Of a stretch of 64,000 bases of DNA, positions 33,001 through 42,000 are shown piece by piece. Position numbers: made by a program. The stretch's first letter is position 1, and each line of letters opens with the position of its first letter. The DNA is from an uncultured Candidatus Rokubacteria bacterium (GTDB lineage: Bacteria > Methylomirabilota > Methylomirabilia > Rokubacteriales > CSP1-6): positions 224,001-288,000 of the forward strand of contig CAWBMV010000012.1 in the NCBI GenBank assembly GCA_963789955.1, in the 5' to 3' direction.

Positions 33001-36000
33001 GCGAGCCACGCCAGGACGATCGCGGTGCCCGCGATGAAGCCGAGCTCGCGCACGCCGCGGAAATCGGTCAGCCACAGGACGTAGAAGGTACCGCCCGCGG
33101 TGACCGCGCCGAGCAGCATCCCCGGGCCGCTCCGGGTGGCGGTGATCTCGATCGCTTCCTTGAGGTTGCGTCCGAGGAAGAGCTCCTCTTCGTAGCGGAA
33201 TAGAAAGTAGATTCCGTAGTCGATCCCGATGCCGATCACGATCGAGATGAACATCACCGAGAAGAGCGAGAGGTGCCCGATCACGAGCGTGGCGATGCCG
33301 ATCGACCAGCAGAGGCTCAGGGCGAGCACCAGCAGCATCAGCACCGGCTTGCCGAAGCGGACGAACGCCGCGAGCAAGAGGCCCAGGGTCAGTGCGAAGG
33401 CCAGCAGGGTCGCGCGCTCGCTGTCGCGGAACGCGGCGACCATCTCGTCGTTCTGGAGGGCCGGCTTGCCGGTCACGCCGACCGCCACCTCGGGGAACTC
33501 GCGCTTGAGCGAGGCGATCACGCCGCGGATGCCCTCGATGGCGCGCTGGTCGCCCGTGAAGCTCCCGCGCTGGGTCTCGGGCTCGGCCAGGATGAAGAGC
33601 AGCTTCTGGTCTTCGGACAGGAAGTAGCCGGCGCCGGGATTGTCCGCGCCCGGGACCGCGAACAAGGTCCCGAAGGGCGACTGGTACGGCCCGGGACGCT
33701 CCAGCCGCGCCCCGATCAGCGCCACCAGGTCCTGGACGAACTTGAGGTCGGAGGCGCCCTTACCCTCGGCCAGGCCGAGGTCGATGAAGTTCGCCATGAA
33801 CGCGTTCGCGATCTGCGTGGCCATCCCCTCGGCCAGCTGGTCGAGCGTCGGGTGGGCCGCGAACGCTTCCATGAACTCCTGGTAGTCGAAGACCGCGTCG
33901 CGGATGTTGGCGAGCCGGTCCTTCGACAGGTAGAGCAGGCCGCGGCCCTCGAACTGCTTGGGATCGATCCGGTACGCGATCCGCTTCAGCGGGACGTTTT
34001 CCGCCCGCAGCTGACGGACCAGGCGGTTCGCGTAGAGGGTCGCCTCCGGCAGCGAGGGCGCGTCGACGACGATGGCGATGCTGTCGAGATCGCCGAACTC
34101 GCGCTCGTACTGCGTGTAGCGCTCGACGTAGGGCCGGCCCGGCGGCAGCAGGGCGCGCGTCGAGGTGGCGAACGTCAGCGAGGTGAGCGCGTAGACGACC
34201 GAGAGAGCCGCCAGGGCGACGGCAATGAGCACGGTCGTCACAGGCCGCGCGCAGGCGATCCGGACCAGCGCGCGGAGAGGACGACCGATCAGCCGAGCGA
34301 TCGGCACCTACTCGTCGCCGGCGATGAACCGCTCCAGCCGCTGCCGAGCGGTGTCGTCGGCCCACTGCTCGGGCGGTGACTTCATCAGGTACGCCGACGG
34401 CGCGAACAGGGCGCCCTTGATACCGCGATCGAGAGCGAGCTTGCACGACCGAATGGCGTCGATGACGACACCGGCGGAGTTCGGCGAGTCCCAGACCTCC
34501 AGCTTCAGCTCGACGTTGATCGGCTGATCGCCGAAGCCACTGCCTTCGAGGCGGATGTGGGCCCACTTCCGGTCCGCGAGCCACGGCACGTAGTCGCTCG
34601 GACCGATGTGGACGGCGTCGGCCGGCAGCTCGTGTCCGAGCTGCGAACGGACCGAGTCGGTCTTCGAGATCTTCTTCGAGGTGAGCCGATCGCGCTCGAG
34701 CATGTTGTAGAAGTCGGTGTTGCCGCCGAAATTCAGCTGGCTGGTCCGGTCGAGCCGGACGCCCCGGTCGTTGTAGAGCTTCGTGAGCACGCGGTGGATG
34801 ATCGTCGCGCCCACCTGCGACTTCACGTCGTCACCGACGACCGGCAGGCCTCGCTCCTCGAACCGCCGGCGCCAGTACGCCTCGCGGGCGATGAACACGG
34901 GGATGCAGTTCACGAAGGCGCACCCGGCGTCGAGGATCTGCTCGACGTACCACTTGGTCGCCATCTCGCTCCCCACCGGCAGGAAGTTGACGACGACGTT
35001 GGTGTTGGTGTCGCGGAGGGTGCCGGCGATGTCGGCCGTCGGCCCTGGCGCCTTCTTGATCATCTGGGAGAGGTAGTGCCCGAGGCCGTCGTGCGTCATC
35101 CCGCGCTGGACCGGCACGCCGAGCGGCTTGACGTCCGCGAACTTCACGGTGTTGTTGGGCTCCTGGAAGATCGCTTCGCTGAGATCCCGCCCGACCTTGC
35201 GCTCGTCGATGTCGAAGGCCGCCGAAAACTCGATGTCGCCGACGTGATATCCCCCGAGCCGGGGGTGCATCAAGCCGGGAATGAATTTATCGTCGGGGGC
35301 GTTCCGGTAGTACTGCACACCCTGGACGAGGGCCGACGCGCAATTCCCAACACCGATGATGGCTACTCTGACGGCTCCCACGGAGTCCTCCTCAGATAGT
35401 GGTCAGTCGAGCGGGGCGTTAACGGCTAGAAGTCTAGCACGGGCTTGAAAATTTTCCGGCTAACGATCGTCAGCGGCTCACCGCAGCGAGGTCCTCTTCT
35501 GCTTTTCTTCGCCGATGAACTCGTCCTGCTTGGTCTTCATCTTCTTCATGAGCTCCTGGAAGGAGGAGGTCGTGATGATCTTGTTGAACTGGGTCCGGTA
35601 GTTGGAGATGAGGCTCACGCCCTCGATGACGACGTCGTAGACGAGCCACTTGTCGCCCCGCTTGAGCATGCGGTAGTCGATCGGGATCTCGGTGCCCTGC
35701 TTGGTGACGAGCTTGGTGCGCACGACCGCGCCTTCGCCCTCGATGGTCTCGCCGAGGAAGTGGATCTGCTCACCGCCGTAGAGCTCGATCTTCGAGATGT
35801 AGGAGCGCTCGAGGAGATCGGTGAAGAGCCCGACGAACTCGTCCTTTTCGGCCTGAGTCCGCGGACGTCCAGTGCCGCGCCAGCGACCGCTTGGCAGTCT
35901 CGGAGAAGTCGAAGATGTCGTTGGCGACCTGGCGAACCGCCTCGCGGCGATCACGCTGCCGGCCATCCTTCTTGAGCTCCGGATCTTCCAGGATCTTGAC

Positions 36001-39000: not shown

Positions 39001-42000
39001 GCGCGATCATCCAGTCGGAGGCGCGGCGTAGGGTCGGGTGATCGGGGGGAAGATCGCTCTCGACCAGCGCGTTGACGGCGAGCGCGGTGTCCCACACCGG
39101 CGAGGGGCAGGGCTGGTAGTGGAGCATGTCGCCGTTCTCGACGGCGAGCGCCTCGATCTCCTTGAGCTGCCCCAGCACGAGCGGGTGATCGTCGGGATAG
39201 CCGAGCAGCCGCATCGCCAGGATCGAGTTCGCCATCGCCGGATAGATGCCGCCGAGCCCGCCCGGCACGGCCAGACGCTCCTCGAGCCAGAGGCGCGCCG
39301 TCTCGATCGCGCGGCGGCGCAGGGGGCGCGGCGAGAAGCGCTCCCAGATCTTGAGGCCGTCGTCGACGGCGATGAAGAAGCTCTTCCAGAAGAGACCGCG
39401 CCAGCTGAAGGGCTCGGGGACGCGCGAGAACCGCAGGCTCGTCTCTTCACGCGGCACCGGCCACAGCTCGTCGAGCGAGAGATGGGGCGGCAGCCACTTC
39501 ACCGGCTTTCGATCCAGCAGCACCAGCAGCGGCACCAGGACCGTCCGCGACCAGTACGAGATCTCGTAGATGTTGAACAGGAAGAAGGGCCGCGGCAGCA
39601 GCATGATCTCGACCGGCATCGTCGGCACGCCGTTCCAGTCGTACTCGCCGAAGAGCGCCAACAAGATCTTCGTGAACACGTCGGCTTTCGCCGGACCACC
39701 CATCTCGCGGATCAGCGAGCGCGCCGCGACCATCGTGGGGTCGCTCAGCGCCACGCCGGCCATCTTCATCGCGAAGTAGGCCTTGATCGTCGAGGACAGG
39801 TTGGCCGGGCCGGCCTCGAAGAGGTTATAGCCGCCGTCAGGAAGCTGCTGGCTCTTCAGATAGAGGACCGCGCGCGTCTGATGGTCGCGGTTCACCTGGT
39901 CGATGAGGTGACACGAGGAGCAGCTGCTCGGATGTGATCGTCGTGTTGGCTTCGAGCTGACCGACCCAGTGACCGTCGGGAGCCTGTTGGCCGAGCAGGT
40001 GCGCCTGGGCGCGCTCGATCGCGTCCTGCAGGTCCCTCACGGGCGTGATGGTAACATGCTGACTCGATTACGGAAACCTCTCGAATGGACCTCCTGGTCG
40101 GTACCGTCACGCTTCGCCCGTACGTTTTTGCGTTCCTGATCGGGTTCGTAGTGGCCGGCGTAGTCGATCTCGGCTGGCGCCGCACGCTCGGGTTCACGGC
40201 ATCCGTCTGGCCGGTGGCCATGCTGGCCGAGCTCTCGTCCACGCGCACCGGGTTTCCCGTTCGGGTTCTACCAGTACACGGGCCTGACGCGCGGTCAGGA
40301 GCTCTTCATCGCCAATGTTCCCTTCATCGACTCGCTGTCGTTCGTCTTTCTCGCCTACGCCTCGTTCTGTCTGGCCCGGATCGCGCTCGCCGGGCGCGAC
40401 GCGCCGCGCTGGGCGATGGCCCTGACCGCTGGCGCGCTCATGATGGCGCTCGACATCGTCATCGATCCGCTCGCCGTGCGAGGGGATCGCTGGTTCCTCG
40501 GGCCGCTCTTCGCCTACGCCACGCCCGGTCCTTACTTCGGGGTGCCGATCTCGAACTTCGTGGGGTGGGTCATCGTGGGCGCGACGGGGGTTGGGCTGTT
40601 CCTGGCCCTGACCAAGAATGTTTCGGGACGACGAGTATGGCCCGGAGTCGCGTTATACTACGCCGTGCTTGGATTCAACCTCACCATGACGGTTCAGATC
40701 GGTGAGTTGCTGCTGGCGGTGATCGGTGCGACGATTCACCTCGTAGTCGCCTTGTCCGTCTGGTCCATTCACCGGAAGCCGGGCCTTCAAGTAAGCCCGC
40801 AGAGCCAAGGGATTCAGCGCCTATGAGCTTGCCCGTTTCACAAATGTGGGCTGTGGCGTCCTATGTCCTTCGCCAGAAGCTCGCCGGCCGCAAACGCTAT
40901 CCGCTCGTGCTCATGCTCGAGCCCCTGTTCCGCTGCAACCTGGCGTGCGCCGGCTGCGGCAAGATCCAGTACCCGGCCCAGATCTTGAAGAAAAACCTGA
41001 CGGTCGAGCAGTGCCTCGCCGCGGTCGACGAGTGCGGCACGCCGGTCGTGTCGATCCCCGGCGGCGAGCCGCTCATGTACCCGGACATCGGGCCCCTGGT
41101 CAAGGCGCTGATCGCGCGCCGCAAGTACGTCTACCTCTGCACCAACGCCATCCTCCTGAAGGAGAAGCTCGAGGCGGGGATCTTCACGCCGTCGAAGTAC
41201 TTTTCCTTCAGCGTGCACCTCGACGGCCAGCGCGAGGAGCACGACGAGGCGGTGTGTCGCGACGGCGTCTACGTCCAGGCGGTGGAGGGGATCAAGGAAG
41301 CTCTGCGTCGCGGGTTCCGCGTCACCACCAACTCGACGCTCTTCGACGGGGCGAGCCCGCTGCGGATGCGCGAGTTCTTCGACGAGATGATGGACCTCGG
41401 CGTCGAGGGCATGATGATCTCGCCGGGCTATAGCTATTCGAAGGCGCCCGACCAGGAGCACTTCCTGCGTACCCAGCGCGCCCACGATCTCTTCTCGCGG
41501 ATGCTCTCGAACCCGAAGCGCCGGTGGCGGTTCAACCAGTCGCCGCTGTTCCTTCAGTTCCTGATGGGCAAGCAGGAATTCGAGTGCACGCCGTGGGGGA
41601 ACCCGACCTACAACGTCTTCGGCTGGCAGCGTCCCTGCTATCTCCTTCAGGAAGGCTACGCGGCCACGTTCAAGGAGCTGATCGAGACCACCCGCTGGGA
41701 GAACTACGGAAAGCGGAGCGGCAACGAAAAGTGCCGTGACTGCATGGTGCACTGCGGCTACGAGCCGACCGCCGTGAACCACACGTTCGGCTCGTTGCGC
41801 GGCTTCCGCGACACGGTCGCGGCCACCGTTACCGGCCGGTATTGAGCACGGAGACGACCAATGACGGACGTCACGCTCGAAGGCTGGATCCCCGAGATCG
41901 GGCCGGGTCTGTCGCTGCAAGAAGTGGTCGACAAGGCGTTCGACTATCGCGGCAACGTCACCGTGGTCCGGACCGACGGCTCCGAGACCGAAGGCTATCT

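Follow-up and report, generated by a model that had tools for sequence, protein, structure and literature searches.

In the hopanoid gene cluster of an uncultured soil bacterium (Candidatus Rokubacteria), the squalene-hopene cyclase gene shc is followed on the same strand by mlaE, mlaF, mlaD and mlaC. With a probability of about one half, we read these genes as an ordinary shuttle-type Mla system that was captured into the hopanoid operon and is co-expressed with shc, and whose MlaC probably also serves as a shuttle for HpnN. Hopanoids are bacterial sterol-like lipids, and Mla is a well-known lipid shuttle running between the cell's two membranes; HpnN is, to our knowledge, the only characterised hopanoid transporter. 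Many of the producers considered here are without HpnN. The pairing of shc with mla genes hints that Mla-type machines help to move or balance hopanoids. The window, meaning the whole stretch of DNA analysed, comprises 64,000 nucleotides of contig CAWBMV010000012.1, and positions are counted from its first letter.

Gene order of the locus

The order shc-mlaE-mlaF-mlaD-mlaC given in a preliminary description of this DNA is real: the five genes form one minus-strand row within the hopanoid cluster, continued by ino1 and an hpnN-like gene, with cruF-like, hpnH, hpnG, hpnA, hpnD and ispH genes in a divergent arm (Table 1). Three-frame translation also traced shc, and the mlaF frames show the Walker A, signature, Walker B and H-loop motifs. 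An AT-richer gap of 96 nt parts mlaC from ino1-hpnN, so that hpnN may have its own promoter; a consensus scan of the region returned no promoter, and terminators at chance level. RNA contigs overlap parts of the region, and a single shc-mlaC transcript cannot be read from them.

Table 1 Features of the hopanoid and mla gene cluster, with positions in the window.
Feature	Position	Strand	Basis
shc, squalene-hopene cyclase	38137..40040	-	~633 aa intact, start inferred; TIGR01507 630 vs cut-off 431 on partial ORF
mlaE permease	37349..38144	-	264 aa in relatives; PF02405 260 bits; extra base near 38046
mlaF ABC ATPase	36604..37342	-	245 aa in relatives; top NCBIfam match MlaF PRK11831, under cut-off
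mlaD, short single-MCE, 146 aa	36138..36578	-	TIGR04430 143.6 bits vs cut-off 135
mlaC, periplasmic lipid shuttle (by homology), signal peptide	35478..36120	-	213 aa in relatives; PF05494 in two frames
ino1, inositol-3-phosphate synthase	34308..35381	-	between mlaC and hpnN; position conserved
hpnN-like RND/MMPL transporter	31526..34307	-	TIGR03480 in two pieces, 371 + 183 bits, under cut-off 752
cruF-like membrane protein	40085..40826	+	PF04240; opens divergent arm; extra base near 40259
hpnH adenosylhopane radical SAM enzyme	40823..41845	+	TIGR03470 531 vs cut-off 225
hpnG-like phosphorylase	42296..42901	+	TIGR03468 111, under cut-off 187
hpnA hopanoid-associated epimerase	43228..44226 (start approximate)	+	TIGR03466 457 vs cut-off 368
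hpnD presqualene diphosphate synthase	44250..45110 (start approximate)	+	TIGR03465 308 vs cut-off 279
ispH, isoprenoid precursor supply	47160..48281	+	in the divergent arm

Two Mla-type systems of different kinds

The genome contains only two MlaE genes. The shc-linked one goes with a short MlaD and an adjacent MlaC, and this system is the only shuttle-type Mla of the genome. The other, on contig C34 between his genes and radA, consists of mlaE, mlaF and a gene for a 411-aa MlaD, preceded by a small lipoprotein-like gene and followed by radA. It has this bridge-type MlaD and no mlaC, and the earlier naming of it as a housekeeping counterpart of like type was not confirmed. In a low-confidence model of the C34 MlaD, the MCE domain is followed by some 250 helical residues, with helices from residue 157 to 400. 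The locus resembles the Veillonella parvula MlaEFD bridge with its long MlaD (PMC10665443) in MlaE, MlaF, the 411-aa MlaD and the lack of MlaC; the likeness concerns C34, not the shc-linked system, and no C-terminal barrel is seen in the low-confidence model.

Profile and sequence scores put the shc-linked system nearer to canonical Mla. The C34 MlaD scores 81.1 with TIGR04430, which the operon MlaD passes, and the closest solved relative of the operon MlaD is P. aeruginosa MlaD (E 1e-19). Against P. aeruginosa MlaE, the intact protein of relative L041 scores 192 bits and the C34 MlaE 142. The operon MlaE exceeds the cut-offs of PF02405 and TIGR00056 and falls below that of NF033619 (271 vs 315), while PRK11831 is the best match of the operon MlaF (197 vs cut-off 441), whose gene sits between mlaE and mlaD. 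A model of MlaC from a relative (pLDDT 88) gave 12 fold matches at E <= 0.001, every one of them MlaC/Ttg2D.

The preliminary description called the machine complete, which needs qualifying: no mlaB lies beside either operon, none of the four STAS matches in the genome being nearby, and the one mlaA gene, read in two frames, is on contig C22. PMC11131202 reports MlaB missing from several working Mla systems. Compared with the Mla systems of E. coli, P. aeruginosa and A. baumannii, the operon is alike in MlaE, a probable MlaF, the short MlaD, the MlaC fold and an MlaA encoded elsewhere, and differs in the absence of a nearby mlaB, the order E-F-D-C, the coupling to shc, the TolC-like gene often found between mlaD and mlaC in relatives, and a host outside Proteobacteria, short MlaD being reportedly rare there (PMC10665443).

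Conservation of the link to shc

Conserved synteny was upheld, with shc and mlaE linked in 18/22 same-order genomes; in three of the remaining four shc is gone from the cluster, and the fourth is at a contig end. Among 80 related loci, shc lies directly upstream of mlaE in 70, and 62 of these junctions have a stop/start overlap of 4, 8 or 1 nt. Family f8 keeps the link despite a rearranged layout, and in g11, where shc is lost, the mla genes are still within the hpn cluster (3/3 loci). In family f13 the system is unlinked from shc in all seven genomes. Many relatives have the TolC-like gene, giving the layout shc-mlaEFD-tolC-mlaC in family f2; no TolC orthologue was found in the present genome with the queries used. 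A metagenome sister clade carries mlaEFDC-mlaA operons (mlaA in 51/80 loci), and 12 of its 14 long loci are without a hopanoid match, the other two being linked. Strict mutual exclusion of TolC and MlaA was rejected, both being present in 8/12 TolC-bearing f1 genomes and in most f13 genomes.

A scan of genome contigs with a single protein query gave matches in this lineage only. The earlier tally of ABC_tran domains next to SHC mixes in other transporters; in genome G053, shc-hpnG is followed by the ATPase of a MacAB-type exporter. The literature searched contained no report of a MlaFED-shc link, and HpnM and HpnS are already published. In PMC8886135, mlaDCEF adjoins speDE, not shc.

Probable capture of a shuttle-type Mla system by the hopanoid operon

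By analogy with E. coli-type Mla, MlaE2F2D6 would occupy the inner membrane, with MlaC as its periplasmic partner and either MlaA or a TolC-like protein on the outer-membrane side, and MlaFED would spend ATP to retrieve phospholipids stripped from the outer leaflet by MlaA/MlaC. The conserved stop/start overlap would couple the mla genes translationally to shc, and co-expression may allow hopanoids to be added and stray phospholipids removed together, setting outer-membrane order. LpxC is found in 24/24 genomes tested, so lipid asymmetry needs upkeep.

An ordinary Mla function is favoured by genomes G001 and G002, where the orthologue is the sole MlaE, and by the 12 sister-clade loci without a hopanoid match. 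It also agrees with a comparison of MlaE, MlaD and MlaC sequences, in which no residue was common to the shc-linked groups and absent from the unlinked ones; a control grouping gave two columns in MlaE. Against it, long-MlaD systems are described as the ancestral and commonest Mla core (PMC10665443), so that the C34 system could still cover phospholipid traffic, freeing the short system to specialise in this order.

MlaC as a candidate shuttle for HpnN

The operon MlaC probably doubles as the HpnN shuttle, replacing a true HpnM. With TIGR03481 (HpnM), the MlaC of intact relative L041 scores 90.2, below the cut-off of 160.1; none of the operon MlaC and four other genomic MlaC proteins scanned passes, and in a tree the true HpnM proteins form a distant clade. 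The MlaC whose gene immediately precedes hpnN on C34 falls within the clade of operon MlaC proteins (SH-aLRT 97), on a long branch that makes its placement unsure. A predicted MlaC-HpnN complex (relative L043) scored 0.47, compared with 0.01 for the best of three controls, with at least 93% of contacts shared between runs and a partner pLDDT of at least 78; the mark for complex scores is met by 116/157 solved complexes and 2/215 mismatched pairs, and with a score of 0.60 or under by just 18 of the 157 and both mismatched pairs. The predicted complex lends weak support to a partnership, and the operon MlaC may also serve HpnN.

The HpnN-HpnM-HpnS route proposed by Lawrence et al. (10.1101/2025.07.29.667474) likewise has an MlaC-like shuttle and an HpnN-like pump near shc and shares the idea of a Mla-like hopanoid path. 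That model puts HpnN in the place of MlaFEDB and treats the hpn-linked mlaC as an additional copy; the present cluster contains all of the ABC core, and its MlaC stays under the HpnM cut-off (90 vs 160 bits). The locus bears on whether one MlaC can serve both ABC and RND transporters.

Alternative readings of the link

It is possible, though at well below even odds, that MCE-family ABC transporters form a second, HpnN-independent hopanoid route between the membranes, brought in behind shc on at least three occasions (short, long and tail-to-tail mlaEFDCA) and the sole transporter left in the clusters of families f2 and f7. That hopanoids, in addition to phospholipids, are cargo of MlaFED itself, which would recycle them from or deliver them to the outer membrane independently of HpnN, we consider rather unlikely. 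MCE transporters do adjoin shc in three independent settings: the short system in f1-f5/f8; a long system 1.4-2.0 kb behind shc-hpnG in 10/12 paralogue-bearing f7 genomes (two unresolved) and also in f9; and mlaEFDCA tail-to-tail with a distant SHC lineage in a metagenome clade (11/80 loci). Furthermore, the hopanoid exporter HpnN is nearly absent from f2 (1/21 genomes) and f7 (0/21), leaving an MCE system as the only lipid transporter found in those hopanoid clusters; as f2 keeps the link, serving HpnN cannot explain its retention there. Precedent comes from PMC11713862: cholesterol import by Mce4 shows a polycyclic lipid as cargo of an MCE transporter, and BstABC sterol transport, found through co-location with biosynthesis genes, shows that gene neighbourhood can point to a substrate; the architectures differ, and sequence likeness to Mce1 parts is distant only. 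However, HpnN-less producers may retain hopanoids in the inner membrane, family f10 has the cyclase but a short MlaD in 0/6, metagenome clusters L176 and L147 carry their own true HpnM (224 and 228 bits), and diagnostic residues are missing. With its entire Mla core coupled to shc, this lineage, abundant in soil, offers named candidates for Mla/MCE acceptance of a sterol-like lipid.

The genes might instead have joined once by accident or through loose clustering of envelope genes, the overlap keeping the operon together with no functional tie. This is improbable. The unlinked state in f13 (7/7) and in most metagenome loci (only 2/14 long loci linked) fits it, as do the clustering of envelope genes in general and the non-independence of relatives, but the link outlasts both the f8 rearrangement and the loss of shc in g11, and two more independent links are unlikely by random placement (rough P 0.001-0.02, from assumed numbers). 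Even mere co-regulation would mean that hopanoid synthesis is wired together with the upkeep of lipid asymmetry.

Very doubtful is the preliminary description's view that C34 is the housekeeping copy and the shc-linked genes a further Mla machine set aside for hopanoids. Conserved coupling to shc speaks for this, as does the long-type system, which most of the genomes tested retain and which is similar to the ancestral core (PMC10665443). Against it, G001 and G002 have the orthologue as their one MlaE and carry neither HpnN nor an SHC above the cut-off (both are metagenome assemblies, incomplete by nature, with a completeness rating of 100%); the two systems differ in type and are not a housekeeping copy and its duplicate; and 136/158 f1 genomes have one MlaA, which needs this MlaC-type partner. 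Restriction to SHC-bearing genomes or hpn neighbourhoods fails in G001, G002, f13 and most metagenome loci. With its canonical-type scores in addition, a dedicated second copy is unsupported, and a link to hopanoid traffic is plausible.

The shc-mlaE reading frame

In this assembly shc and mlaE are read as one 848-aa ORF, whose earlier interpretation as a frameshift artefact was borne out by relatives and short-read contigs. Single extra bases at about 39915, 38284, 38046, 36682 and 35866 are absent in 8/8 aligned close relatives, and short-read contigs from near-identical populations, covering four of the five sites, lack those at 39913-4, 38285, 38043 and 35865-6. The bases near 39915 and 38284 fall in shc, that near 36682 in mlaF and that near 35866 in mlaC; a further one near 32210 splits the hpnN-like gene, and the same type of indel error recurs in mlaF, mlaC, hpnN and mlaA. 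At the true junction, mlaE starts at 38144 and shc stops at 38137, an 8-nt overlap flanked by the extra bases at 38284 and 38046, which jointly merge the two frames. The ORF as called begins inside shc, whose start lies further upstream, probably at 40040. A genuine SHC-MlaE fusion protein, suggested by the single ORF, has a negligible probability and is ruled out, so far as sequence can tell, by the relatives and short-read contigs that lack the extra bases. Relatives have a stop codon at the junction, and L048 has the usual overlap there.

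Gene order and the shc–mlaE junction

As the preliminary description stated, shc, mlaE, mlaF, mlaD and mlaC lie consecutively in the window, in a source genome of 38 contigs that is 87% complete. Compared with 8/8 close relatives, the window carries single extra bases at five positions, four of which are absent from short-read contigs of public runs, the fifth lying outside the rows shown; hpnN and mlaA are split likewise in the source assembly. The call of shc and mlaE as one ORF, already suspected to be a frameshift artefact, is confirmed as such, and a fusion protein is ruled out because the extra bases are missing from relatives and short-read contigs. 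At the true junction the mlaE start overlaps the shc stop by 8 nt. Single extra bases interrupt many genes between 31526 and 46500, which makes gene calls and fusions in this interval unreliable.

The position of ino1 between mlaC and hpnN is conserved, and relatives frequently carry an extra TPP enzyme and an hpnL-like gene at this site. The AT-richer gap between mlaC and ino1 contains, by eye, a minus-strand extended −10-like motif, at which a consensus promoter scan made no call; the gap may hold a separate promoter for ino1-hpnN.

Features of the shc–mla region and of related loci (G000, source genome; C18, C22 and C34, its other contigs; L numbers, compared loci)
Feature	Position	Strand or direction
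shc, mlaE, mlaF, mlaD, mlaC, single row	window ~40040 to 35478	minus
ino1, then hpnN-like gene	downstream of mlaC (ino1, window 34308-35381)	minus
96-nt gap	window 35382-35477	
cruF-like gene, hpnH, hpnG, hpnA, hpnD, two dehydrogenases, ispH	window from 40085	opposite
Single extra bases	window ~39915, 38284, 38046, 36682, 35866	
Non-operon MlaC genes (five)	G000:C34:1199421, C34:1211308, C34:163740, C22:101794, C22:403717	
Lipoprotein-like gene	L014:6091-6594	
Genus g11 (cluster shc lost, distant SHC lineage kept)	L037:2138-4150	
shc-hpnG and MacAB-type exporter (G053)	L030:4288-9583	
TolC-family gene between mlaD and mlaC, examples	L029:6035-7429, L040:8968-10467	
tolC and mlaC without mlaEFD	L204:2883-4946, L207:2447-8485, L236:4-1345	
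Second hopanoid cluster (G000:C18)	L018:175-9743	

Conservation of the link

Among 80 loci examined of at least 285 confirmed, shc stands immediately upstream of mlaE in 70, overlapping it by 4 nt (n = 41), 8 nt (n = 19) or 1 nt (n = 2), with eight junctions of other kinds or not called. The ten remaining loci comprise two contig ends, one cluster without shc and seven rearrangements, six of which have shc further along the same locus. By our own count, 18 of 22 genomes of the same order are linked, three (genus g11) lack a cluster shc and one is at a contig end. The linkage of this known transporter to hopanoid synthesis is real and conserved, as had been claimed for the order.

The mla genes of g11 remain between hpnH and ino1-hpnN in 3/3 loci; the cluster copy of shc has been lost in this genus, whose only SHC is of a distant lineage and is encoded elsewhere. 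Family f8 is arranged mlaEFD-tolC-mlaC-hpnN-mlaC-pagL-shc.

HpnM, HpnS and HpnT are placed near shc by Lawrence et al. (10.1101/2025.07.29.667474; PMC12324291), who suggest that HpnN acts as the pump of an Mla-like path; the text searched and one supplement file report no mlaE or mlaD near shc. The MlaFED–shc link is apparently undescribed, no account having been found in a literature search that left out most subscription papers.

Two MlaE systems of different type

The source genome has two MlaE genes. The C34 mlaE, between his genes and radA, accompanies a 411-aa MlaD that scores 81 against the MlaD equivalog cut-off of 135 and whose low-confidence model shows long helices after an MCE domain. 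With its long MlaD and no MlaC, this locus matches the bridge-type MlaEFD of PMC10665443, whereas the shc-linked system, with a short MlaD and an MlaC shuttle, is closer to the solved proteobacterial Mla. The two fall in separate clades in a quick tree of 71 rows, thinned by identity from 161. The first supposition, that the shc-linked operon duplicates a housekeeping Mla, therefore does not hold. Just upstream of the long-MlaD mlaE is a small lipoprotein-like gene, conserved across families; one homologue has a weak PsbP-like match (E 0.006).

A possible role in phospholipid retrieval

The most likely reading, to which we give a probability of about one half, is ordinary phospholipid retrieval, in which MlaFED–MlaC would work with the MlaA encoded on C22 and be produced together with the cyclase, while MlaC may also accept hopanoids from HpnN. 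Direction and substrate are taken from knowledge of the E. coli Mla system. LpxC was present in 24/24 genomes tested.

That MlaFED itself transports hopanoids ranks second and seems rather unlikely.

Family f2 retains shc-mlaEFD in 7/7 loci fetched, six with tolC-mlaC, and an HpnN orthologue was found in 1/21 f2 and 0/21 f7 genomes, several of them incomplete; this loss of HpnN is evidence for a functional tie. A tie through MlaC as a shared HpnN shuttle is weakly supported. The MlaC encoded immediately upstream of hpnN on C34 falls within the operon MlaCs, and MlaC co-folded with HpnN residues 18-760 from a relative (L043) scored 0.47 (best of three controls, 0.01), where the mark is reached by 116/157 solved and 2/215 mismatched pairs, although at ≤0.60 by only 18/157 solved pairs and by both mismatches. 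Contacts agreed between runs at ≥93%, with partner pLDDT ≥78. The operon MlaC failed the HpnM model, as did the four scanned of the five others in the genome. One of the five non-operon MlaC genes lies directly upstream of a third hpnN.

An accidental link, with no functional tie, is improbable. Since the linked genomes are kin, the link counts as one origin. Recurrence of MCE transporters beside shc is evidence for a tie. Of 16 f7 genomes searched, 12 have the long-type paralogue, and in 10 of these it lies 1.4-2.0 kb behind shc-hpnG, an arrangement that also occurs in f9; a distant SHC lineage is tail-to-tail with mlaEFDCA in 11 of 80 metagenome loci (80 of 470 examined), those retained in the tree forming one clade. 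For the two extra links, a rough model of random placement using assumed numbers yields P = 0.001-0.02, a value that would weaken if envelope genes cluster. A different transporter type is coupled to shc in G053, where the genes behind shc-hpnG encode a MacAB-type exporter (adaptor, ATPase, two permeases).

Strict dedication to hopanoids, as originally proposed, is the least probable of these readings, and the shc-linked Mla is judged not to be a dedicated duplicate. In two genomes rated 100% complete (G001 and G002) the sole MlaE is this orthologue, arranged mlaEFD-tolC-mlaC; neither yielded HpnN, and SHC had no match in G002, while the G001 match reached only 150 bits (cut-off 431). The mlaE gene is separated from shc in 7/7 f13 genomes, one of them a single contig. 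A metagenome sister clade (80 of 470 loci examined) carries mlaEFDC-mlaA operons, and of the 14 loci with flanks of 8 kb or more on both sides, 12 have no match to SHC, HpnH, HpnN or HpnA; its phylum is inferred from 63-79% identity to a protein labelled Thermodesulfobacteriota by NCBI. Short-type MlaD was found in none of the hopanoid producers of f7 (0/21), f9 (0/1) and f10 (0/6), although G004 carries short-type mlaE-mlaF genes at the end of a contig, and no residues marking the shc-linked groups were found. The named genomes surveyed are those of this phylum; phylum-wide tallies include the unpublished G034, G044, G076, G216 and G217, on which alone no claim is made.

TolC, MlaA and a second hopanoid cluster

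Many relatives carry a TolC-family gene between mlaD and mlaC (f2, 17/21; f8, 13/15; f6, 2/2; f13, 18/20; f1, 12/158). MlaA is rare in f2, f6, f8, f10 and f11 and common in f1 and f13; strict mutual exclusion of TolC and MlaA was not upheld. Families f10 and f11 lack mlaEFD at the hopanoid cluster but have tolC and mlaC inside it or close by.

The second hopanoid cluster of the source genome, divergent from the second hpnN, contains an hpnL-like gene, an ATP sulfurylase-APS kinase fusion, hpnJ (score 766, cut-off 578), an hpnI-like glycosyltransferase and a sulfotransferase. It is a candidate for making a sulfated extended hopanoid.
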